Source: Synechococcales cyanobacterium VAR_4_metabat_354
GTDB lineage: Bacteria > Cyanobacteriota > Cyanobacteriia > Cyanobacteriales > Chamaesiphonaceae
Length of the DNA: 64,000 nt
Assembly: GCA_031414775.1 (NCBI GenBank)
Contig: JANOQI010000057.1
Location: forward strand, 37,709-101,708
Direction: 5' to 3'
Shown: in pieces, positions 13,279-25,052 of the stretch
Position numbering within the stretch: position 1 is the stretch's first letter
How the letters are laid out: every line of letters starts with the position of its first letter
The notes under the pieces: generated by a model
What the model was told of the DNA's origin: nothing
Databases searched by the model: none
What the model saw: the letters and a program-made list of their open reading frames with translations, nothing else
Translations under genes and position numbers: made by a program

Positions 13279-14079
13279 ATGGCCACTGCAAACGCTGCTA
13301 CCCCCGCTGCCGACAATCGCAACACGGAATCAATATCCTTATTGATGACCTATCACGAAAAACCGAGTGTCCCGGTTCGCAACAAATTAGTCCTACTCAA
13401 TGCTGGTTTAGTTCGACAAGTAGCCCATCGTTTGAGTCGCCAGTGTGTAGAAAATTACCAAGATTTAGAACAAATTGGTTACTTAGGCTTGATTCGAGCG
13501 ATCGAGCGATTCAATCCTTATCAAGGCTGTGCCTTTAGCTCCTTTGCCATCCCCTACATTCGCGGCGAAATTCTGCACTTTTTACGGGATCGGAGCAGTG
13601 CCGTCAAGATTCCCCGCCGCTGGCAAGAACTAAAAAGAGAAGGCGAAAAAATGCGGCAACATCTCACCTTAATTCTCGATCGGAAGCCCAGCGATGTCGA
13701 AATTGCTGATGCCCTGCAAGTTACCATTGAAGAATGGTGCGCAGCCCAAGCCGCTGATCGCAACCGTCAAACTTTGAGCTTAGATGCCACGATCGGTCAC
13801 ATGATGGATTATCCAGTAACTTTAGGTGATAGTCTTCCTGATATTTATGAACAGAATCGGCAACATGTAGAAGAAGAACGTCAACAGCTGGTAGGTATGA
13901 TTAATCAGCTAGAGCGAAAAACGCAACAGGCGATCGAATGTGTCTATATCCAGGGGATGCCGCGAAAAGAAGCTGCCGAAAAAATTGGTGTTAGTCCCAT
14001 GACTGTTACCCGCCACTTGCAAAAAGGAGTCAAACAGCTCTCCACCATGATGAATAACAATTGTAGTGTGGCAATCTAG
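13279..14079 (+). CDS. sigF: Group 3 sigma factor, SigF/SigJ family (from memory closer to the SigJ type)
   Basis: DLEQIGYLGLIRAIERF, AFSSFAIPYIRGEI, region 4 HTH GVSPMTVTR. Confidence 0.88.
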   Translation: MATANAATPAADNRNTESISLLMTYHEKPSVPVRNKLVLLNAGLVRQVAHRLSRQCVENYQDLEQIGYLGLIRAIERFNPYQGCAFSSFAIPYIRGEILHFLRDRSSAVKIPRRWQELKREGEKMRQHLTLILDRKPSDVEIADALQVTIEEWCAAQAADRNRQTLSLDATIGHMMDYPVTLGDSLPDIYEQNRQHVEEERQQLVGMINQLERKTQQAIECVYIQGMPRKEAAEKIGVSPMTVTRHLQKGVKQLSTMMNNNCSVAI

Positions 14080-14086
14080 CAATTAG

Positions 14087-16171
14087 TTATTTTTCTGGCT
14101 GGAGATCATCCACTCGATCGATAATCGTCAGTTGTCCACCGCGCAAGTCTTGGTAATCAAATTCTACGCGGCGATCAAGAGCATAAGGCTGGTTTCCCTG
14201 TTCATTGCTACGGCGTTTGTTAAATCCAAAAGAACGCGTTGTCAACCGTTGGGAAGCAATACCCTGCTTCAGTAGATAGTTACGAACTGCTACTACCCGG
14301 CGCATTCCTAAAGCTTGGTTATAGGCTTGGGAGGCACGAGGATCGGTATGACCAGACAAATCCACAGAAATGTAAGGATGGTCTTTTAGCACCCGGGCAA
14401 TTTCGATTAGTACTCGCGCCGAAGCTGGGCTAATAGTAGATTTGTTTAAGGCAAAATGCACATTGCGCGAAATGGTGAGCTTAGTCACAATCGAGGGTGA
14501 CACAACTGCCAACGGTGGTGTAGGAACTTCATCTGGCGACTTCACTGTCAAAGAAGTCTCGGCCAGAGCACAATCGGCTGGAACCAGGTAAGTAGCTTTA
14601 GGCTTAACAGCAATACCCGGCATTGTAATCACGATATTATCAGCTGGTTCGGAAGTACCATATTTACGATCGCTGGCAATCGCACTTACAACAGTACCAG
14701 GCAATAAATTTTGGAAAGTAGCTTGGAAGCGACCCTGGGAGTCGGCCATCACCTTTTTCAAGGGTTGAGATAGCGGCCCATTATTACTATCATCGGGGTT
14801 GACTTGATAAATTTCCACTTCCGAGCCAGGATCAGCAACTCCATCTAAATTGACGCGATCGCCAATCAGATAAAATTCTGAGGCTAAAAAGCGGGGGGCA
14901 TTAATGGCAGCATTCCCAGTATCGGAACGACGATTTTCGGTATTACGCGGCGGGTTAAGGCCATCACCATTTTGGAAGTCTTCGACAGCTTCGTTCCGAT
15001 AAGTAATTAGATCAATACTTAAACCAGCGATTTTTTGAAAGCGATTGTTCGTAATCAGGTTGCGCCGGGATAAAGATTCTTCACTGGCAGCAAAAGCTGT
15101 AACGGCCACCCCAGAACCATTTTGGAATTCGATCGAGTTGTTAGTGACCTGGTGATCGTTGCCCATTAAGTAGATAGCCGCTCGCCGTAACCGCCGACCA
15201 TTAGATTGCAGATGATTATTAGTAATTTTGACACTGCCAGCAGCAGGCTTAAAGACAAAAATTCCGCTACCATCGTTACCACAAATCAAATTACCTTGAA
15301 TTTTGTTTTGTCTCAAATTGCCTTCTAAGCGAATAGCATCAGGCATGCCTTGCGAGCCATTGCCGAAAATAGCGTTATTGGCAATTAATAAATTGTTGGC
15401 ATTGGCTTGGCTAATAATACCACTAGCACTATGGTATCCGATCGCATTGTGCCGAATCGTGGTGCCTTGGGAATTAAATACATACACCCCAAAATCGGAG
15501 GTTTGGTCAGGGATATTCCGATTAGGTAGAATACCTAGCCAGTTATTTTCAATTAGCACCCGCTGGGGAGCCGACCTGTCATCAAGCTGGGGGTAATTAC
15601 TGGTACCGACAAAAATATCTGCAGCTGGGATGTTTTGGGTCGCAGCTTGGTTGCCGACCCGAAAGCCATAGATACTCAGACCAGTCACCGTAATATCGTC
15701 AGCCATAATCGACAGACCACGATTAATTTGCTGGCCGGGAGCCGGAGTAATTTCCACCGACGGCGTAGCAAAAGTCAGATTTTGAATAGCTGCTTGGCTA
15801 CGGCTCTTGCCACCATCGATCGTCACTTTACTCTTAATAATCGCCGGTAGTTCGGAGCGCAGAGCAATCTGGCTTTGGCCTTCAGATAATTGAAATTCCA
15901 GAAGATGACCGTTAGCGTTGGTCAGTACTTTTACTTGAAGTTGTTCAGCAGGGCTGAGTCGATCGAACTGAAGTTGGCCATTACTGATACTGATGGCTTC
16001 TCTCAAAGTGAGAAATTGATCAGCAACAATTTCATCGCGATTACTGTTGATAGTAATTTTGAAATATTGCTCTGGAGCCGCGAGACTGACTGATGGCCAT
16101 AGTCCTACTAGACTAACCAGAAACAGCCGCGACAGGGAAGAATAACTAATCGGGAATAAAGTGTTTTTCAT
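14087..16171 (-). CDS. Secreted beta-helix (pectin-lyase-like) + Ig-like + C-terminal OmpA peptidoglycan-binding protein
   Basis: Signal peptide, CSLREA-like LTLREAI, Asn-ladder repeats (NNAIFGN, GNLICGN), VHFALNKS..GHTD..RRVE. Confidence 0.85.
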   Translation of the reverse strand: MKNTLFPISYSSLSRLFLVSLVGLWPSVSLAAPEQYFKITINSNRDEIVADQFLTLREAISISNGQLQFDRLSPAEQLQVKVLTNANGHLLEFQLSEGQSQIALRSELPAIIKSKVTIDGGKSRSQAAIQNLTFATPSVEITPAPGQQINRGLSIMADDITVTGLSIYGFRVGNQAATQNIPAADIFVGTSNYPQLDDRSAPQRVLIENNWLGILPNRNIPDQTSDFGVYVFNSQGTTIRHNAIGYHSASGIISQANANNLLIANNAIFGNGSQGMPDAIRLEGNLRQNKIQGNLICGNDGSGIFVFKPAAGSVKITNNHLQSNGRRLRRAAIYLMGNDHQVTNNSIEFQNGSGVAVTAFAASEESLSRRNLITNNRFQKIAGLSIDLITYRNEAVEDFQNGDGLNPPRNTENRRSDTGNAAINAPRFLASEFYLIGDRVNLDGVADPGSEVEIYQVNPDDSNNGPLSQPLKKVMADSQGRFQATFQNLLPGTVVSAIASDRKYGTSEPADNIVITMPGIAVKPKATYLVPADCALAETSLTVKSPDEVPTPPLAVVSPSIVTKLTISRNVHFALNKSTISPASARVLIEIARVLKDHPYISVDLSGHTDPRASQAYNQALGMRRVVAVRNYLLKQGIASQRLTTRSFGFNKRRSNEQGNQPYALDRRVEFDYQDLRGGQLTIIDRVDDLQPEK

Positions 16172-19100
16172 GGCGCTGACGACTCCTGTTTTTGAACGGG
16201 GGTCAACGATGGTTGACTAACATCCCCAGTGACTTGTGACTCTTTCTTGGGAGGATTTAACGGTTGTTGTGAACTAGCATTCTTAGTCACTTGCGATTCC
16301 TGTTGTTGAACAGGGTTCAACTGTTGACGACCAAAGCCGCCAAATAATTCATTAACTTTGACAGTCAAGCCGACATATGGACCATTGGCATTCCGACCAC
16401 CGCCATTCGGGTCATCAGATACCCCTAAGCTATAGCCAGCGGAGAGCCGCAAATCGGGAGTGAGATAGTAGCCAGCTTCGATCGCTGCACCAACTTCACT
16501 TTGGCCAGTGGCGAATTGATTCAACCAGCGCACATCGCCAGTCAGATCCCAGTTGTAGCCGAGGCGGTAAGTAGCCCGCAGTTGACTGATGCCGATGGCA
16601 CTTCCCGCTGTCAGGGACTCATCCAGATAACTGGTAGCGTTACGCAAAGCATATTTGCCTGCAAATTCCCATTGCCAGTTCGGGGCATAAATTCCTTCTA
16701 AGGCTAAGGTGTGGTCTTCGGAGCCAGTACCGACACTGGTTAAGATACTAGTAGGCAACAAGGATGGATTTTTGCGATATTGATAACTGAGAAAGCCATT
16801 AAATTCATCGCTAACTGGATTGCGGAAGGCCATGCCCAGCTTGAGGTTAGTGGTAGCTCCCAATTGGCTAGTAGTTCCCGATCCAGCATCCCGAATAATC
16901 TGGTTGGCGGCACTGGATTGCTGGAATCTAAACAGAGCAGTCAATTCGGGTGTTAGCTTACCCGTGGCACCAGCCGAGATGTTGCTACTGCTTGCTAAAT
17001 TAGAATTGCGGTATTCATAACGAGCATTAGCTTGGAAATTGGGGTTGTCGGTATAATTGACAGCCACACCATAACTATCGCCGCTAGTTACCCCTAATGA
17101 AGACGACGTTTGGCCTAAGCTATAGGGTTGAGAATATTGCTGACCAGCACCAGTAGAAACATTCACGCCACCACCAATCACTCGATCGTAATTCAGGTCT
17201 AGCTTTAAACCAGGACTGAGGACAATCCCTTGCTGCATTCCTACTGATCCGATCGATTGAAACGGACTGAGTGAATAGCGGCCTGTCACCTTAGTACTAG
17301 GAGTCAAACTATAACTACTGTCGAAATCCAAACTCGTATAGCTAGTATCACCATACTGGGCACTGGAAATCAGGTTTTGACTGAGGCCAAGTTTGATGCC
17401 GGGGAAGACTGTCCAGTCAATGCCTAAGGCACTACGGTTCGGATAAACAACATCTTGCTGGCTGCTCAGGTTGGTTTCGTTTTGAGCACGTAAGGCCAGA
17501 GTATTAGTCAGTGGCCAGCTAAAGCGCGATCGAATCTGATCGGAAGACACATTGGCTTGATTTGGATCTAGTGTCAATCGGTCTTGACGATTACGATTGA
17601 CATAATCCACATCTAAAGTGGCGGTGCCAAACCGCTGCTGAACACCAGCTGTAATGGTTCTTAAGTCATTATCAACTAAGCCAGTTGCCGGATTGACGGG
17701 AGTAAGTAGGTTGGCAATGTTGCCATTAACCAACGGTGGCGCACCCCGATTTTCTTCTCGATCGACCTGTAACTTTAAGCTAGTGCTGTCACTCAGCCTG
17801 GTTAACAGATCGGCACCGTAGCGAGTTTGACCCGGTACAAAGCTGGTAGTAGCATTATTGGCAAAACCCGCTTCGCTACTGCGTAGATAAGCACGACCGG
17901 TAGTAGCATCGCTAAATTTAAACTGGCCTTCCAGGCGCATCGCGCTGCCAGTAATGGGGCTACCAGCTCCGGTATTGTTAGAAGATCGAGCATATTCAGC
18001 CACGATATTACTAGTGGAACCCAGAGAAATCAGGGCATCCGCACCAAGAATACTAAAGTCGCGAATACCTTGATTCTCTTGTGTCCAGCTGGCACCGATC
18101 CAACTTTCTTGACCAGCCGATCGATTGAGATTGTATTGAGCGCGACCACCATAAATATTGCTATTAGTACCGCTAGCATACTGATAAGTAGCCACTAAAC
18201 GACGCACTAAGATAGTGCCATTATCAGCAACACTCGTCCGTAATAGAGGACGACGGAGTAAGATGGTACCTCGATCGTAATCTACCTCGTAGTCTAGACC
18301 TCGATTCAGAAACTCTTGTTTAACCACAGTGCCTGGTCGATCGAGTTCTTCTGATTCGATCATCAGGTTTTCGCTACCACCCAAAATCAGGCGCTGCGAC
18401 AAGAAATAAATGCCACTGGTGCCATCGGGGGCAATATTGTCCCGCTGGAAGCCCTGGACATTATCACCATAGAAGCCACTTACTAAAAGGTCACCAAAGT
18501 TGTAGTTTAGTTTAGCACCGTGCAAGTTGCGGTTGGTGGCGGTGAATTGCTGCGATCGATTAGCAAACTCGTTGGTGCCATAATCGCCCCACATGGCCAT
18601 ATTTGGCACATTTCCTAACACCCCAGTAGAGCTTTCTACTTTTAAGAAAACGCTATCGCGGGAAGGAGTCAACACGTCTACTTTAGAAGTATCACCATAA
18701 ACTGGATAAACTTCTTCGCAAGATTGACTACTGTAAGTATCACGAGAGAGTCGATCGTTAGTACCACACAGTTTATTAAGTGGCCGATCGGTATTTAGAG
18801 CACCAGTTACCGCCCAGTCTCCAATGCGACTAGTGGCAAAAGCCTGGCCTCGTACTTGGAGTTGAGTACTATTATCTCGATCGATCGGCAAGAATTCGGT
18901 GAAAGGCCGATAGTAATCGGTACCCCGCGCTCCCAGGCGGAAGTCTACTACACCAGTAGCGATCGAACTGCGTAAGTTGGTTTCAAACTGTACCTGGGCA
19001 AAGGCTTCCAGATTTAGGTTGGTGGCACGGACGCGGACTGTTTGGGCATCTAAGCCTGCTCGCAACTTGGCAGTGAATCTTCCTTTTTGGACAGGTACCT

Positions 19101-19788
19101 GAAATCCCGGTTGATCCTTGTTAGTGTCAATACCGGCAAACTCACCAGCACTAGTATAGAGAGTAACGATGCCATCTTGTTTGGTAACGTTACCATTGTC
19201 ATCGAGTAGCTGACCATCTAAGTTAACTAGAGACCGACCATCAGCTGGAATGCGAGTTTCGGCGCTGTTCAGTTGGATCTTAGTTGGTGTCCCGGTTACT
19301 TGGATCGTAGTGGTGGATACTTCGCCTTGGCTGGTTTTGGCGGTAACAGTATTTTTACCAGCACCGAGGGATACCCCATACCAAGTCTGGGTAATTAGCT
19401 TAGTGCGGCTATCAGTTTCGGTACGACCAATTAGTTTACTATCGACTGGTTGATTGTTGACTTTTAGCTCAACTGTGCTACCAACTTGATATTGTAAAAC
19501 GACGGTAGTCGCTGGAATATCTAAGACACTATTGGGGGTAGGAGCCAGAATCTGGACGGCTGGCGAACGCTGATTTTCAGGAGCGGGCGGTGCTGGCGCT
19601 GTTCCTACAGGAACAACTATAGTAGGTGTAGCTGGTGAAATATTTTGTTCAGCTGGGGCTGACGATTTCACTGGTGCCACGGCATCAGTTTGAGCAAGGG
19701 CAGGGTTGACTAGTAGCAGTCCGAGGCTACTAATTGCTGTACCCAGGCATAAAGCTCTGAGCATTGTGACTATCAGTTGATGCTGCAT
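16168..19788 (-). CDS. Large outer-membrane beta-barrel protein with N-terminal Ig-like domains
   Basis: Signal peptide, Pro/Ala linker, IPADGRS (Big_1-like), YPVYGD, then a long run of amphipathic beta strands ending GPYVGLTVK. Confidence 0.75.
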   Translation of the reverse strand: MQHQLIVTMLRALCLGTAISSLGLLLVNPALAQTDAVAPVKSSAPAEQNISPATPTIVVPVGTAPAPPAPENQRSPAVQILAPTPNSVLDIPATTVVLQYQVGSTVELKVNNQPVDSKLIGRTETDSRTKLITQTWYGVSLGAGKNTVTAKTSQGEVSTTTIQVTGTPTKIQLNSAETRIPADGRSLVNLDGQLLDDNGNVTKQDGIVTLYTSAGEFAGIDTNKDQPGFQVPVQKGRFTAKLRAGLDAQTVRVRATNLNLEAFAQVQFETNLRSSIATGVVDFRLGARGTDYYRPFTEFLPIDRDNSTQLQVRGQAFATSRIGDWAVTGALNTDRPLNKLCGTNDRLSRDTYSSQSCEEVYPVYGDTSKVDVLTPSRDSVFLKVESSTGVLGNVPNMAMWGDYGTNEFANRSQQFTATNRNLHGAKLNYNFGDLLVSGFYGDNVQGFQRDNIAPDGTSGIYFLSQRLILGGSENLMIESEELDRPGTVVKQEFLNRGLDYEVDYDRGTILLRRPLLRTSVADNGTILVRRLVATYQYASGTNSNIYGGRAQYNLNRSAGQESWIGASWTQENQGIRDFSILGADALISLGSTSNIVAEYARSSNNTGAGSPITGSAMRLEGQFKFSDATTGRAYLRSSEAGFANNATTSFVPGQTRYGADLLTRLSDSTSLKLQVDREENRGAPPLVNGNIANLLTPVNPATGLVDNDLRTITAGVQQRFGTATLDVDYVNRNRQDRLTLDPNQANVSSDQIRSRFSWPLTNTLALRAQNETNLSSQQDVVYPNRSALGIDWTVFPGIKLGLSQNLISSAQYGDTSYTSLDFDSSYSLTPSTKVTGRYSLSPFQSIGSVGMQQGIVLSPGLKLDLNYDRVIGGGVNVSTGAGQQYSQPYSLGQTSSSLGVTSGDSYGVAVNYTDNPNFQANARYEYRNSNLASSSNISAGATGKLTPELTALFRFQQSSAANQIIRDAGSGTTSQLGATTNLKLGMAFRNPVSDEFNGFLSYQYRKNPSLLPTSILTSVGTGSEDHTLALEGIYAPNWQWEFAGKYALRNATSYLDESLTAGSAIGISQLRATYRLGYNWDLTGDVRWLNQFATGQSEVGAAIEAGYYLTPDLRLSAGYSLGVSDDPNGGGRNANGPYVGLTVKVNELFGGFGRQQLNPVQQQESQVTKNASSQQPLNPPKKESQVTGDVSQPSLTPVQKQESSAP

Positions 19789-19791
19789 GAC

Positions 19792-21396
19792 TTATTTGAC
19801 CTCACGCGCGGTAGGTGTAACGCCAAAGTTCATACGAGCTATTCCACCTGGTGCTAGTTTTACTAATCGCGATCGACTGTTTCGTTCGCTAAAATATAAG
19901 TTGGGAGCAGGGCTGTATCCGGGTAGGCTGCTGAGGTCTAGTGCGCCAGTCCGATAACCAGCGACGACTGATTGCACGGAGAACAGGCCATTGGGATCGG
20001 TAGTGATTCGGTTGCCATCATCCATGAAGATGACGGCGTTAGGAATACCGGGTTCGTTGCCCTGTTGTTGGCCATCGAAGTTTTTATCGACGAAGACACG
20101 GCCAATGAGGGTGCCGGTATCACGAATCAAACCTGGGCGAATACTCAATGTATGAGTAGCCGGACCATCAATTAGAACAGTAATATTGCTATTATTATTG
20201 GCACTACTAACGTTATTGTAAGTACCGCTCAAGGTGGCAAGATTAAGACCAGTACCACGAATGGCATCTGTGCCTAAAGTGACGGCGTAGACCAAATCAA
20301 CAACCTTTCCAGCAGGAATGACAAATTTAGGTGCGCCGACACTACTACACAAACCATTAGCTATAGTTATCGGTACGAGCAGAGCTGTTACAGGAGTAGT
20401 CCCGATCTGGAAGCAAGCAATATTGCCTTCTTGCTTCAGAGTAACTGGCTCAGTCCTCAGACCAAAAGGAGTTGTACTACCAGGAAGAATCCTGTCATCG
20501 TACCATTGAGCCTTAATCGAATTCGGACGTATCGACATCCCGAGAGGTAAAGTATCTGTAACTATTGGGTTTAAAATATCATCAGGAGAATTATTCTTGA
20601 GGGCAATGCGATAAACTACGGTATCACCTACTTCAGCAGTAGCTCGATCGGCACTTTTAGTAATCTTGGCAGGTTGGCTGTCACATACTCCAATCCCAAC
20701 CAAAGCGACTCTCGCCGCATCACTGACATCCACCACAACATTTTGGGTAACTCCCTCAGTAGTACTAAGCGGTTTGCCATCGAGAGAAGTAGCTCTGTAA
20801 CTCAAGATACCGCCATTAAAGCCAGTAATATCTATCCGGACGCGACGTTCACCATAAGTGGAACCAGCTGGTGTTTTAACGATGAGAATATAGCTCTTGC
20901 CGATCGCAATTTGGCTCCGATTAAAAAGGAAGTTGTATCGACCTTCACCATCGGGATCGAGCGGGTATGGATTAATGTTGTCAAGGTTCGGTGGAATACG
21001 ATCTTGCTGAGGAGAGCCGGCAGTGGAAGTAAGCTGTAATAAAGTAGTGGGGTCTAGATTGTTAGGTGCTACATTGTACAATCCAACAGAGAAGTCTTTA
21101 TAACTAGATAAGCGTTCACCCTGACAGCCTGTGATAATACCCAGTGGATCGATTAATCCAGAAGGATCAGCGATAACTTTATTGCTAACACCCTCGATTA
21201 GGGTGTTTGGATTACCTGGATCGACGTATTGGTAATCAGCTTCGTTGATAATTTTTGGTGGTGGTGGCGGATCTACTATGGGTGGGTTATTTTGAGCGAT
21301 CGAAGGCTGAGTAGAAACCAAAGTGGCCAGAACCAGCCCCGTGACACAATTTTTAAATAAATGAGATTTTGGCCGAAAGGGCTGGAATCTGGACAC
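19792..21396 (-). CDS. DUF11 domain + SdrD-B-like secreted protein
   Basis: GTG at 21396 with AGGA RBS; signal peptide; ITKSADRATAEVGDTVVYRI..DTLP (DUF11); GRVFVDKNFDG.QQ.NEPGIP. Confidence 0.85.
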   Translation of the reverse strand: MSRFQPFRPKSHLFKNCVTGLVLATLVSTQPSIAQNNPPIVDPPPPPKIINEADYQYVDPGNPNTLIEGVSNKVIADPSGLIDPLGIITGCQGERLSSYKDFSVGLYNVAPNNLDPTTLLQLTSTAGSPQQDRIPPNLDNINPYPLDPDGEGRYNFLFNRSQIAIGKSYILIVKTPAGSTYGERRVRIDITGFNGGILSYRATSLDGKPLSTTEGVTQNVVVDVSDAARVALVGIGVCDSQPAKITKSADRATAEVGDTVVYRIALKNNSPDDILNPIVTDTLPLGMSIRPNSIKAQWYDDRILPGSTTPFGLRTEPVTLKQEGNIACFQIGTTPVTALLVPITIANGLCSSVGAPKFVIPAGKVVDLVYAVTLGTDAIRGTGLNLATLSGTYNNVSSANNNSNITVLIDGPATHTLSIRPGLIRDTGTLIGRVFVDKNFDGQQQGNEPGIPNAVIFMDDGNRITTDPNGLFSVQSVVAGYRTGALDLSSLPGYSPAPNLYFSERNSRSRLVKLAPGGIARMNFGVTPTAREVK

Positions 21397-21456
21397 GAGA
21401 TTATTCCTGTAATAATTAATCGATGGGAGCTTTCGAGGGGAACCCCCCATAAGTAA

Positions 21457-21963
21457 TTAGCGAATCCGAACTTCGTAGCTCAAATTGCTTTGAGACCGGG
21501 GTGCAACACTACTGGTAAAAGCCCAACGGACGTTGGTATAGTTGCCAGCAGCTGCTGGCTTTTTATCGAACATTGGTTGTGCGCTATAGCTTCTACCACC
21601 ATCAGTACTAAAAGTCAGTTGTGCGCCTTTAACAGGAGTAGCAGAATTCAGGACGTAGGACGTGCCGGGGCGAATTTTCTGGTTGAGAATTAGTTTGTTC
21701 ACTGGCTTGGTGCTAACGTTGTTGGCAGCAATTCGATAGACAATGACATCACCAGGCTTAGCACTAGCAACGGATACTAGCTTGAAGCCTTTTTTATCAG
21801 CAACTTTTTTGAATTGAGAAAGCTTCAGCTGAATAGATTTCTTGGCGGCTACTTGCGCTCCTACTGGCTGAGTGAATTGGCCGATAACTGGCAAATTACC
21901 GCTGACTAAAACAGTAGTGGATAGTGCCATCATGGCGATGGTGGTAGAAAGTAAACGTTTCAT
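21457..21963 (-). CDS. Small secreted single DUF11-like domain protein
   Basis: ATG at 21963 (MKRLL signal peptide, GGAG RBS); AKPGDVIVYRI, FSTDGG, YTNVRW, LSYEVRIR. Confidence 0.82.
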   Translation of the reverse strand: MKRLLSTTIAMMALSTTVLVSGNLPVIGQFTQPVGAQVAAKKSIQLKLSQFKKVADKKGFKLVSVASAKPGDVIVYRIAANNVSTKPVNKLILNQKIRPGTSYVLNSATPVKGAQLTFSTDGGRSYSAQPMFDKKPAAAGNYTNVRWAFTSSVAPRSQSNLSYEVRIR

Positions 21964-22017
21964 ACGTGGGATTACTCCGGTATAGATGTAAAAGGTCGGG
22001 CACAGCCCATGCAAACT

Positions 22018-22026
22018 AGTATTCCC
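22018..22026 (-). promoter_or_regulatory. GGGAATACT SigJ/SigF-type promoter motif
   Basis: Exact GGGAATACT on the minus strand, about 55 nt upstream of the ATG at 21963. Confidence 0.55.
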
Positions 22027-22148
22027 AGAGAGGATGCTAGACTTGCTATGGCTTAACGGGCAAGAATAAAAATATATTGGGGCTATGAGTAATAGCCGTT
22101 TTATTTATGTACTTAATTAATTATTTACTGGTCTAGATCTAGAAGGCA

Positions 22149-22176
22149 GGAGATAGAAACCGTGGCTTCTATCTCC
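22149..22176 (-). terminator. Stem-loop directly after the 822-aa DUF11 gene
   Basis: GGAGATAGAA-N8-TTCTATCTCC perfect 10-bp inverted repeat; no clear U-tract. Confidence 0.6.
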
Positions 22177-22185
22177 CGTAAGTAT

Positions 22186-24654
22186 CTAGTTCAATTTACG
22201 TTTGAAGCTAAATGTACCAGTGCTACCAGGAGCAACTACAGTTGTGACAGTATCAACATATTTAGTGATGTCAGTAGCAGCAGTTGTACCAGATTGGTCA
22301 ACCGAAGTAGTACCACCAGCTGGGTCTTTAAACAAACCAATGGTGGAGGTAGTGTCTGGATCAACCGCTGAACCTACGACGTTACTAGTATCTAGCGCGC
22401 CGTTACTATCAGTATCTTTAGCCCAAGTATTAGTACCAGTAGTACCATTCTCAGTAATTACTAAATTGGCAGCCTTCATGACAGAGCTACCAGTACCAAC
22501 TAACTTATCCGAAATATTTTCGTAAGTAATGCGATACTCAATGATATTGCCGGAAGCTGGCTTCTTATCGGCAGTGCTGAAGTTAACGTCAGCTGGTAAA
22601 ACTGCTGGGCCGGTGCCTTGCAAAATACGAGTTTCTTTGGTCAGTTTGACGAAACCGGTGTAAACACGATCGATCGTTTTGTTAGTAGCTGTTGGTGCTG
22701 CCAGTGCAATATCCCCACCAGTAGGAGCAGTTACAGTACCACCAGTAAAGGCATTAATTACAACAGGGAAACTTTCTAGTGGCTTGGTGGTAGCATCTTG
22801 AGCCAGGTCAACGCTGACTTGGTATGCAGCAAGCGCATCAGGTGCCACAGCATTTAAGGTAACTGGGTTAGTAGCGCTAATGGGGCCATTGGCATTACTA
22901 CCAACACCAGAAAGTGGCTTGAAAGTAAAACCAGTAGCAGTGGCTACATAAGTAGCTTCTTGACCATTAGCAGAAATTTTAACTTCAGTGCCTACTGGTA
23001 ATGGATCACCAGCTAATAATTCTGGCAACAGAGAAATGTTAGCAGCAGCACCACCAGTATTTCTGACAGTATTGTTGAAGCCAGCAGCAGCTGGATCAAA
23101 AGTAGCCGTTGGTGCAGTACCAGCAGGTACGGTGGTGGACTTATTCGTAAAGTCATCGTTAGTGTTAGTTGGACCAATTGCTTCTGGTACACCTACTGGA
23201 CCATTCAACAGGGAATTTGTTGCTGCAGCAGTGAACGTATATTTGTATTCGTTGATTTCACCAGCAAGGCTACCAACAGCACTGTTGTCGTTAGCAGTAT
23301 CAACCACAAACGCCGGATCAGCTACACCAGTGGTAATAGCACTGGAGCTAGGAGCAGCAGGCGTAATGGGAGTAGCCGAATCGAAGTTGTTAGGAGTTTG
23401 GTCACCAGATTCGTCATAAACAATCGCAGTTGGTGAACCACCAGCAGTAGTACCAAAAGCTTGTGCCATACTATCGATCGTGTAGGTAGTAGCAGTAGGC
23501 GCAACACCACTAGTGACAACCTTGAAGTTGAAACCAGTAACTTCGGCACCAGGCGCTACAACAGCAGCATTAGTATCGGTGATAAAGCCTACGCGCTTGT
23601 AAACTGCTGCTGGATCAAAGGTTGTTACCCAGGCAGTAGTCGGATCGTTAGCAAATGTGCTGGTTGAAGTAGTTGTGTAAACTGCTGTCCAGCCAATTGG
23701 TGCAGTCGCTGCTGCGGCTAACTTAGTACCATCAGGAATTGCACTAGAAACCAAGATCCGGTTAACGGTGCTAGGGCCAGAGCCAGTGTCTACTGTCAGA
23801 GCTGAACCGGCTAAAGCACTAGGAGTAATACCAGAGTTAGTAATATCTGTGCTCGCAACTTTCAAACCAAGGCCGTAGCTGATTACATCATCAGATAAGT
23901 TGGCTGGAGTAGCATTATCACTAACGCCAGTACGAGTTTCAGTGACAGTGGCCAAGGCAATATTCTTGACTACGGTACCAATATTAACTGATTGAGTCGC
24001 ACTACTTTCGCGTTGACCGTTGGCTGGAGCACCACCAGTAGTATTAACGTTATTGGGGTTACCATCAGCTACCAGGGGCTGGTTTGGTTGGTCACTAGGA
24101 GTGTTACCTAATTGAACGGCAATAGTAGAGCCAGTACCATTATTAACAGTCACTTCTGCGCGGACTTGGACAACACCACCGGCAGCAACGTTCGGTACAT
24201 CTACACCAGCTGCTGGTACAGGCTTCCAGATATTATCAGCAGGGTCTAGGTACTCCAATTTGTTAAAAGTACCAGGACCGGTCACAGTGGGCTGACCAGG
24301 AATGCGTATAGTAGTGGAAGTGTTACCAACGTTGGTAACAGTGTAGTCAAACTCTAGCTTGTCGCCAACAGTAACAGCACCACCAGGGTTAGTTTTATTA
24401 ACGATACCGCTACCGGAAACATCAATACCGGCAACATCAGCAACAATCACCTTAACTTCGTTAGAAGTAGCGTTGATGGGAGTACCGGGGTTACCTGGAT
24501 CATCATAGCTAGCAGTAGCCGTGTTGGAAATAGCAGTACCGGCAGCTGTCTCAGCCAACACTGGTGCCACTAACTGTAAAAGACCACCACTCACCAAAAG
24601 AGTAACCAGAAGAGGGCGAGAGTATTTCATCATATTAATATTGTTTACTTTCAT
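22186..24654 (-). CDS. Large secreted Thr/Ala/Gly-rich DUF11-repeat protein, candidate major fibre subunit
   Basis: Signal peptide, TAAGTAISNTATASY N-terminal motif, GDKLEFDYTVTNVGN and GNIIEYRITYEN DUF11-like repeats; T-ending codons such as GCT/ACT/GGT are conspicuous. Confidence 0.85.
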   Translation of the reverse strand: MKVNNINMMKYSRPLLVTLLVSGGLLQLVAPVLAETAAGTAISNTATASYDDPGNPGTPINATSNEVKVIVADVAGIDVSGSGIVNKTNPGGAVTVGDKLEFDYTVTNVGNTSTTIRIPGQPTVTGPGTFNKLEYLDPADNIWKPVPAAGVDVPNVAAGGVVQVRAEVTVNNGTGSTIAVQLGNTPSDQPNQPLVADGNPNNVNTTGGAPANGQRESSATQSVNIGTVVKNIALATVTETRTGVSDNATPANLSDDVISYGLGLKVASTDITNSGITPSALAGSALTVDTGSGPSTVNRILVSSAIPDGTKLAAAATAPIGWTAVYTTTSTSTFANDPTTAWVTTFDPAAVYKRVGFITDTNAAVVAPGAEVTGFNFKVVTSGVAPTATTYTIDSMAQAFGTTAGGSPTAIVYDESGDQTPNNFDSATPITPAAPSSSAITTGVADPAFVVDTANDNSAVGSLAGEINEYKYTFTAAATNSLLNGPVGVPEAIGPTNTNDDFTNKSTTVPAGTAPTATFDPAAAGFNNTVRNTGGAAANISLLPELLAGDPLPVGTEVKISANGQEATYVATATGFTFKPLSGVGSNANGPISATNPVTLNAVAPDALAAYQVSVDLAQDATTKPLESFPVVINAFTGGTVTAPTGGDIALAAPTATNKTIDRVYTGFVKLTKETRILQGTGPAVLPADVNFSTADKKPASGNIIEYRITYENISDKLVGTGSSVMKAANLVITENGTTGTNTWAKDTDSNGALDTSNVVGSAVDPDTTSTIGLFKDPAGGTTSVDQSGTTAATDITKYVDTVTTVVAPGSTGTFSFKRKLN

Positions 24655-25016: not shown

Positions 25017-25052
25017 AAAAAAAGGGGCACGTCCCTGCGGAAACGCACCCTT
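25017..25052 (-). terminator. Rho-independent terminator of the Rpn-like gene
   Basis: Minus strand AAGGGTGCGTTTC-CGCA-GGGACGTGCCCCTT (hairpin with G-U pairs) followed by a T-run. Confidence 0.7.

Follow-up and report, generated by a model that had tools for sequence, protein, structure and literature searches.

In chaperone-usher pili, namely type 1 and P pili (FimH-FimG-FimF-FimA(n)-FimI, together with FimC and FimD), the incomplete Ig-like domain of one subunit is completed by the N-terminal strand of the next one. Their tip has a head and an acceptor domain with no donor strand, the shaft subunits have both donor and acceptor, and a terminator ends growth. At the base there is an outer-membrane barrel with Ig-type domains in the periplasm, where no source of ATP is available. 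Similar features can be recognized in a cluster of five genes, which we call A to E, in the genome of Synechococcales cyanobacterium VAR_4_metabat_354, from freshwater. They lie in a stretch of 64,000 nucleotides of contig JANOQI010000057.1, which we call the window. A strand logic like that of chaperone-usher pili can be read here from the sequences and from one predicted complex, with a different fold. We think, with somewhat better than even confidence, that the operon builds a pilus-like fibre on the cell surface, whose subunits complete each other's split CLIPPER/DUF11 domain by donor strands. In our best reading the assembly is independent of sortase and of chaperone-usher parts, and the joints are probably locked by isopeptide bonds. 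There are several differences from chaperone-usher pili: two strands are donated instead of one, the fold is that of CLIPPER/DUF11 domains and the joint is probably covalent; the barrel of D has about 40 strands, compared with 24; the candidate chaperone B would offer a groove instead of a strand; in other phyla C, the proposed terminator, forms one chain with the barrel.

For BsaA of Clostridium perfringens, which belongs to the TasA family, a process of 'exchange and lock' has been proposed (bioRxiv 10.1101/2024.11.04.621531). According to the accessible part of that preprint, the N-terminal segment of each monomer enters the sheet of the next one and an autocatalytic intermolecular isopeptide bond is then formed, as we suggest for our cluster; the paralogue BsaB forms dimers only. 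In contrast with our case, BsaA is found in a Gram-positive species, has the TasA fold, uses the signal peptidase SipW and a secretion linked to type IV pilus genes, and has no outer-membrane barrel. There is no TasA-type family among the Pfam matches of A to E; no search for a SipW homologue was made. The thread of Sulfolobus acidocaldarius formed by Saci_0406 also has head-to-tail donor strands with an apparent isopeptide link and no chaperone-usher genes, as far as its description is accessible (PMC9715654). The adjoining Saci_0405 has, as our protein C, a donor without acceptor; it was proposed to be a cap. This archaeal system differs from ours by its single membrane, by the bond of the N-terminal amine to an Asn of subunit n+2 and by its small single-domain subunits, which have no sequence relation with those studied here.

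The domain itself is known from the CLIPPER adhesins, such as B9T28_05395 of Acinetobacter silvestris (PMC12617251; structure 9IFR). They belong to the same domain family, with the Lys-Asp-Asn triad in the same strands, and they also have GEVED-type heads, an OmpA-like anchor and a Gram-negative host. However, they are single chains with intramolecular bonds only, and in the accessible text of that paper there is no mention of polymerisation, of a barrel, of donor strands or of a domain that is split. Sortase-assembled pili (SpaA, BcpA, RrgB) have multi-domain pilins, CnaA/CnaB-type isopeptide domains and covalent links between subunits; in our case the link would instead be autocatalytic, within the reconstituted domain. 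The giant barrels anchored by SLH domains (SlpA/OmpM type) combine an N-terminal SLH region with a large barrel, and two distant fused relatives of D do have SLH domains, whereas D itself has no SLH match in Pfam.

The genome of this species (3.56 Mb in 64 contigs, 99.96% complete) was searched for the parts of known pathways. The usher family PF00577 has no match in D or in the whole genome, and the PapD-like chaperone family PF00345 has none in the genome; E. coli controls were positive for both. Sortase (PF04203) was not found in the genome, with three positive Gram-positive controls. An LPXTG motif with a membrane anchor is not present at the ends of A, B and C, where a beta-strand motif is found instead. 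No fimbrial Pfam family appears in the operon or in the genome. We have found no description of the A-E operon or of such a pilus in the literature, in a search that reached subscription journals only in small part. A few other systems were considered and set aside. According to the accessible parts of their descriptions, the zinc exoprotein ZepA (PMC10957091) is unrelated to the cluster, the Microcystis CT pilus (PMC12397347) has an unrelated 12-kDa pilin and the DUF1102 proteins of archaeal tafi (PMC11821415) are not DUF11. We also dropped the thin pili of Synechocystis, as no evidence linked them to this family.

We will start with protein A. Its signal peptide is followed by N-terminal donor strands, a CLIPPER-like domain (residues 72–227), a DUF7925 domain (234–474), an Ig domain (481–668) and a C-terminal acceptor. 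A preliminary description of this DNA, made from the letters and their open reading frames (ORFs), had considered it a DUF11-repeat protein. This could not be maintained: the DUF11 profiles PF01345 and TIGR01451 do not match its own domains, and the profile match found is DUF7925 (PF25546, residues 234–424, 182.4 bits for a cut-off of 26.5). This is a CnaA-like predicted isopeptide domain, carried by all 120 A homologues among the matches listed. Its triad is Lys264/Asp326/Asn415 in the seed sequence Q8YS00; in the aligned A homologues none of the Lys or Asn of this domain is invariant. The AlphaFold2 (AF2) model of A has a predicted local distance difference test score (pLDDT) of 82.3 and a predicted template modelling score (pTM) of 0.45. 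Its first domain resembles the CLIPPER structure 9IFR (Z 9.3, root mean square deviation (rmsd) 2.8, 115 residues aligned), and the middle domain BcpA 3kpt (Z 9.5) and SpaD (Z 9.0); an Ig domain of PorA (Z 9.8) is another match of the domains of A.

The peculiarity of A, as read from its sequence, is that its last domain lacks its final two strands, which are found at its own mature N-terminus. The chain stops one strand ahead of the strand with the Asn, and the mature N-terminus holds that strand and the next one. In a MAFFT alignment, residues 656–822 followed by residues 35–76 are collinear with the whole intact DUF11 domain of C. Both ends contain invariant residues in an alignment of 39 homologues, 34–87% identical, chosen from the 120 listed hits plus the loci described below. 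At the mature N-terminus I42, N44, Y50, D52, S64 and G76 are invariant in all 39 of them; K673, Y707, N713, E735, W744, F817 and R819, among others, are invariant in the last domain. In the solved CLIPPER domain an isopeptide bond joins Lys715 to Asn806, with Asp748 (PMC12617251, accessible part). The counterparts of these residues in A are, in the alignment, Lys673, Asn44 and Glu735. A hidden Markov model (HMM) of this acceptor domain has only two matches in the whole genome, A (E 5e-74) and B (E 3e-4).

Protein C has a donor and an intact domain. Its signal peptide is followed by the donor motif, a domain without family match, an intact DUF11 domain, an SdrD_B-like domain and a conserved C-terminal tail. 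It had been described as a DUF11 and SdrD-B protein: the DUF11 part is confirmed (PF01345, 39.3 bits for a cut-off of 24.6; TIGR01451, 51.5 bits), the SdrD_B match is under its cut-off (18.5 bits). The donor HMM built from the A family matches C with E 4e-4. A motif of the type Asn-x-Ala/Val-x-Tyr-x-Tyr, similar to the donor of A, is found at the mature N-terminus of 77 of 78 C homologues (69 by regular expression and eight more by eye; the remaining ORF is cut by a contig end). The C-terminal 25 residues of C (19792-19870, minus strand), which abut the start of D, are strongly conserved in all the C homologues read. This tail could be the part of C that binds the Ig domains of D.

Protein B is an acceptor without donor. 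It had been described as a single DUF11-like domain, in agreement with its match to TIGR01451 (31.1 bits for a cut-off of 24). All of the 76 B homologues read stop at the same strand as the acceptor of A, and none of them has an N-terminal donor motif (five regular expression matches are all internal). In a profile-profile comparison of the B and A families, the sole match of B is the first domain of A (probability 65%), not its acceptor domain. The position of the catalytic acid is Asp in the intact domain of C and in the proteins of a second locus, Glu in A, and Gln112 in B, a residue invariant in 35 of 35 homologues. As B has Gln at this position and no Lys where the bond would form, we suppose that it holds the donor strands without bonding to them. 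A variant of SpyCatcher with Gln in place of Glu is known to bind its tag without reacting.

The fit of the two halves was examined in a predicted complex of A(35-232) with B(54-185), each with its own alignment, together with three controls. The interface score ipSAE was 0.88, 0.87 and 0.88, and 0.00 in all three controls. The pair thus clearly passes the mark used for this score. In its calibration 116 of 157 solved complexes pass this mark, as do 2 of 215 mismatched pairs; since we used our own alignments, these counts are only roughly valid here. The partners have a pLDDT of at least 90 and at least 99% of the contacts agree between runs. In the model the two strands of A fill the open edge of B: residues 35-74 of A face residues 59-67, 82-87, 91-97, 101-112, 115-118, 170 and 184-185 of B. 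Asn44 contacts Leu65 and Tyr93 of B in this predicted complex; the near-invariant Lys69 of B is outside the interface.

The distribution of donors and acceptors in the genome is also informative. The donor HMM finds four ORFs under E 1e-3, namely A, C and two proteins from contig C36, and the next match has E 0.32. Acceptors are found in A, in B and in five proteins of contig C36. The latter are coded by five tandem genes at about 76.2–93.5 kb (L111:6277-17766, L112:1756-7526), which form the second locus mentioned above. All of them end in a second type of acceptor domain, which halts at the same strand as A. Two of them, with 1179 and 681 aa and no Pfam match, also have a donor. The other three have none: a protein of 1317 aa with GEVED and DUF11, one of 866 aa with a single DUF11 domain and one of 1222 aa with a beta-helix. 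In total the genome has three proteins with donor and acceptor, four with acceptor only (B and three from C36) and one with donor only (C). The presence of donor-only and acceptor-only proteins makes sense only if strands are given in trans. The C36 proteins are likely to serve the same barrel as additional subunits and tip proteins. In Nostocales and Leptolyngbya the gene after D (717–956 aa) codes for a protein without donor, which has a variable head and, at its C-terminus, an acceptor where both Lys and Asp are present. Three genes of putative endonucleases of the Uma2 family (L111:2895-5261) lie in contig C36 immediately upstream of the five tandem genes.

Genes A-B-C-D form a conserved cyanobacterial operon. 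In a first sample of 41 genomes we found D in 22, our own genome counted, including every one of the 11 others that belong to its genus. In 12 of 12 stretches of relatives taken around D the genes follow the order A (one or two copies)-B-C-D-E; A and B have no tblastn match in the two most distant of these stretches. A scan of named genomes gave 583 relatives among 598 candidate stretches. The 80 stretches that were kept are all from cyanobacteria (Nostoc, Fischerella, Scytonema, Leptolyngbya, Chamaesiphon and others). Altogether 92 loci were fetched, at least three of which correspond to a contig fetched twice. Of 83 testable loci, 80 have C upstream of D and 74 have B there; for A the figure is 76 of 78 testable loci. 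Downstream of D we find E in just 24 of 83, so it is accessory and outside the conserved core; in two relatives it has no OmpA domain. The expectation that the genes occur together elsewhere is borne out, with E as an accessory member. The recurrence of the gene order in dozens of cyanobacterial genomes makes the arrangement more than chance.

In a sample spread over the phylum, D is present in 44 of 301 genomes and in 33 of 134 genera, a patchy pattern. Of the 44 genomes with D, 35 also have the second-locus type of acceptor, and no match to it was found in the 257 genomes that lack D; related genomes are not independent, so we take these figures as a pattern and not as a statistic. Among 1.84 billion proteins, 1664 cluster representatives match the barrel family at E ≤ 0.001. 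This family is found in many genomes of Nostocales and in Leptolyngbya-like and Chamaesiphon-like genomes, with fused forms in other lineages. In the protein Atlas its matches are unnamed clusters or 'TonB-dependent receptor' clusters only, with sparse taxa. In two distant relatives (L023 and L024) protein C has just 307-308 aa, with the donor motif directly followed by one DUF11 domain, and tblastn finds no A or B nearby. In L024 a secreted protein of 1622 aa is found upstream instead.

Protein D is present as a single copy in the genome. It has a signal peptide, a Pro/Ala-rich linker, two Ig-like domains (residues 81-270), a beta-barrel (about 271-1150) and a Gln/Pro-rich tail. Its Pfam matches are weak and limited to Ig (Invasin_D3, E 0.0011); no Pfam family covers the barrel. 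The AF2 model of residues 81-1150, with an alignment of 43 rows, has a pLDDT of 78.1 and a pTM of 0.67. It passed a check set in advance, with the two Ig domains followed by about 40 long strands, in agreement with the Ig and beta-barrel protein of the preliminary description. The top Foldseek matches are SlpA (8ae1) of Deinococcus (E 4.2e-10), then SprA, MtrB, BtuB and LptD, all with low TM-scores. For the Ig-like domains the likeness is to C-terminal domains of GH2 enzymes (Z 15.7, rmsd 8.9, 175 residues aligned). In VIA-align these GH2 domains, FimD and porins all appear at the same Z. A segment inserted in D at about residues 447-520 is a possible plug. In the model D is best described as a barrel of very large size, for which no specific relative is known: the idea of an usher-like pore keeps its giant barrel and loses its particular likeness to ushers. 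The tail of D (residues 1151-1206; 16168-16338, minus strand) follows the terminal 'NELF' strand of the barrel, and its first part (GFG-Q...P-QQ-ES) is conserved across the cyanobacterial homologues. It may be a docking site for E.

The beta-helix and OmpA of protein E had been recognized in the preliminary description. Both are confirmed: it has a right-handed beta-helix (Beta_helix/NosD), an Ig domain and an OmpA-type peptidoglycan-binding domain, for which no NCBIfam equivalog reaches its own cut-off. The distant relatives of D (25–31% identity, 1385–2556 aa) are fusions. In 10 of the 14 scanned, DUF11 and SdrD_B are N-terminal to the barrel; two of the 14 add a C-terminal OmpA and the two with SLH carry three such domains before the barrel. 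In P0232, FlgD_ig and OmpA are fused to the barrel. Eight out of 11 long fused proteins start, after the signal peptide, with a donor-like motif; among the other three, two seem to be truncated at the N-terminus and one has Asp instead of Asn. Thus C, D and the OmpA part of E are found elsewhere as a single chain which keeps the donor at its tip, and C belongs with D.

From these features we can propose how the fibre would be built. The chain would start at the tip with an acceptor-only protein, which may be B or one of the adhesin-like proteins with heads of the second locus. At the base, copies of A would then join, probably with each other rather than closing on themselves, and the N-terminal strands of each would enter the open domain of the preceding one. 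Lys673 and Asn44, with Glu735 as catalyst, could form a spontaneous isopeptide bond, and the joint would become covalent. C, which donates and cannot accept, would be the last member of the chain and its link to D, whose barrel of roughly 40 strands would in principle be wide enough for folded Ig domains; the fibre would leave through this putative pore and stand outside the cell. E would link the complex to peptidoglycan. The hold of B on donor strands may be reversible, and its role that of a cap or of a chaperone in the periplasm, which would work in the opposite sense to PapD. That a fibre forms, that its joints are covalent and that it is exported through D is predicted, A is not a Pfam DUF11-repeat protein, D has no particular likeness to ushers, and E stands outside the core and has no OmpA in some relatives. 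For these reasons the fibre-assembly interpretation of the preliminary description is only partly supported. The roles it gave to the genes fit a donor and acceptor logic which it had not put into words, with A as polymerisable subunit, B as cap or chaperone, C as adaptor, D as pore or anchor and E as wall link.

A more ambitious version, which we put forward tentatively and which is rather more likely to fail in some part than to hold in full, would make of it a new class of diderm pilus: covalent, free of sortase, of chaperone-usher parts and of ATP. The split CLIPPER halves would snap together as a natural SpyTag/SpyCatcher pair and the fibre would be threaded through the ~40-strand barrel and rooted in it; B would be a catalytically dead acceptor, used as a chaperone of reverse sense for donor strands, and the formation of isopeptide bonds would be the irreversible step which drives export. 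If our proposal is true, covalent surface fibres would have a widespread Gram-negative route, so far undescribed, which could explain surface filaments, adhesion or colony traits of cyanobacteria in biofilms, soil crusts and symbioses. It would also provide a natural, genetically encoded pair for peptide-protein ligation, with matched non-reactive partners. Another very large outer-membrane barrel, possibly able to pass folded proteins, would be placed beside SprA on a short list, and the powering of assembly in the periplasm would become testable.

Several points weigh against such a fibre. The entire analysis has been carried out in silico, with sequences and predicted structures. The score of A with B means that the halves fit in the model, not that they bind in the cell; part of it may be due to the ease with which the model reassembles a known fold from its two halves, and B may instead pair with the donor of C. 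The register of Gln112 and the absence of Lys at the bond position come from one MAFFT alignment and the predicted interface. In the 'NIAQ' strand this A reads Ser where most homologues, by eye, have Asn, and the Asn of the predicted intramolecular isopeptide bond of the DUF7925 domain is apparently replaced. The TM-scores of D with SlpA, an outer-membrane tether, are 0.20-0.22, and the alignment of D with FimD (VIA-align: Z 15.4, rmsd 11.9, 345 residues aligned) ties with those of porins (Z about 15). The SLH and OmpA domains of the fused forms place in the periplasm only the stretch before or after the barrel, and the outward topology of C and A is something that we infer. Furthermore, the N-terminal strands of A could complete its own last domain in cis, as in nested pilin domains. 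A would then be a soluble or surface exoprotein, B would pair with the donor of C, D would be a secretion pore or an anchor and there would be no fibre. Discontinuous (nested) isopeptide domains are indeed common in Gram-positive pilins (split ranges in Table 1 of PMC12617251, accessible part). In the monomer model of A the acceptor has a pLDDT of about 90 and the N-terminal strands of about 70, values compatible with docking in cis. Nevertheless we find this closure improbable: four acceptor-only proteins face a single donor-only protein in the genome, the A homologues vary from 576 to 870 aa by whole domains, a difference which a ring would tolerate poorly, and a pTM of just 0.45 does not suggest a closed compact body.

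A complex without a repeated shaft is a different case, which we consider unlikely. One acceptor-only protein, one A and one C would each be joined once, by donor strands, and D would hold the resulting long fibrillar adhesin. This would correspond to the single-chain CLIPPER adhesins, made of several chains. The donor and acceptor logic determines who binds whom and not how many copies of A are present, the fused relatives are single long chains, and in the accessible part of PMC12617251 the CLIPPER proteins are said to be fibrillar adhesins that are monomeric and have an OmpA-like anchor. On the other hand A has a matching donor and acceptor with the three residues of the bond invariant, and nothing in its sequence bars the joining of A with A; the hairpin found after A and its spacing apart from B-E also fit a subunit made in excess. 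It is also rather improbable that the whole system is a periplasmic scaffold, in which D and E would be a tether of the SlpA/OmpM kind between outer membrane and peptidoglycan, with A, B and C as struts of Ig domains in the periplasm. A role as envelope scaffold in the periplasm has been proposed for chlamydial OmcB. SlpA is the best Foldseek match of D, SLH or OmpA lie beside the barrel in relatives and E has an OmpA domain, all in favour of a scaffold. However, the patchy presence of D is unlike that of a core part of the envelope, the acceptor-only partners have GEVED, beta-helix and other adhesin-like heads, and A has no Cys and is rich in Thr, Ser, Asn and Gly, as is often the case in secreted proteins. 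Finally, D might be an uptake receptor of the TonB-dependent type and A-C substrate-binding proteins on the surface, which we judge highly improbable. Several D homologues have the NCBI name 'TonB-dependent receptor' and BtuB and FptA are among the Foldseek matches of D, but these BtuB matches have TM-scores of 0.15-0.29 and correspond to a generic barrel likeness. Furthermore no TonB_dep_Rec or Plug family matches D in Pfam with E up to 10, and its barrel is far above 22 strands.

The positions of the genes and of other features are given in Table 1. All five genes are co-oriented on the minus strand, in positions 14087..24654 of the window, as the preliminary description had them. The ORF listing also confirms the spacing of 3 bp between C and D (19789-19791) and the overlap of 4 bp between D and E (16168-16171); E is translationally coupled to D. 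Signal peptides had been noted in all five products, and their translations, read by eye, do begin with a hydrophobic stretch, after which there is an AxA-type site; they are predicted to be exported by Sec. The true start of B is most likely the ATG at 21963, which gives 168 aa and matches close relatives. C may start at an internal GTG.

Table 1. Genes, domains, motifs and hairpins of the cluster, with positions in the window
Feature	Position	Strand	Description
Gene A	22186-24654	-	822 aa; predicted polymerisable shaft subunit
Gene B	21457-22014	-	185 aa; lone acceptor-only DUF11-like domain
Gene C	19792-21450	-	552 aa; donor-only adaptor/terminator (predicted role)
Gene D	16168-19788	-	1206 aa; Ig domains and very large beta-barrel
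Gene E	14087-16171	-	694 aa; beta-helix, Ig and OmpA; accessory wall link (predicted role)
Donor strands of A (residues 35-76)	24427..24552	-	Last two strands of the CLIPPER/DUF11 domain, with invariant Asn44
Acceptor domain of A (residues 656-822)	22189..22689	-	DUF11-like, ends one strand short of the Asn strand; with invariant Lys673 and Glu735
Donor-like motif of C (about residues 66-95)	21166..21255	-	Soon after the predicted signal-peptide cleavage site
OmpA domain of E (residues 573-658)	14198-14455	-	PF00691, 56.5 bits vs 27.2
Terminator-like hairpin	25025..25050	-	11-bp stem with 6 GC pairs, then a T run; ends the preceding gene
Hairpin directly 3' of the A stop codon	22147..22178	-	Perfect 14-bp stem, no U tract

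The terminator-like hairpin closes the upstream gene, so the operon begins at A. The hairpin after the stop codon of A is very stable: its segment has a folding energy of -57.3 kcal/mol and a z-score of -3.9, and none of 200 shuffles is equally stable. It could possibly be an attenuator or a stabiliser of the mRNA, which would set the expression of A above that of B-E. An AT-rich spacer lies between this hairpin and B. Among public sequencing runs, four DNA runs of one study contain this stretch, three of them being possibly its source, and no RNA run is listed with it.

Upstream of the cluster there is a gene of 301 aa with a weak helix-turn-helix match, whose adjacency to the cluster is not kept in relatives. 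At the other end, convergent with E, a gene of the sigma-70 family with regions 2, 3 and 4 is found on the plus strand (13279-14079). It adjoins the cluster in the closest relatives (L013, L025 and L026) and not in more distant genomes. In one of these close relatives a gene which by its look resembles a putative endonuclease of the Uma2 family (L013:14484-15059) lies between E and the sigma factor gene.

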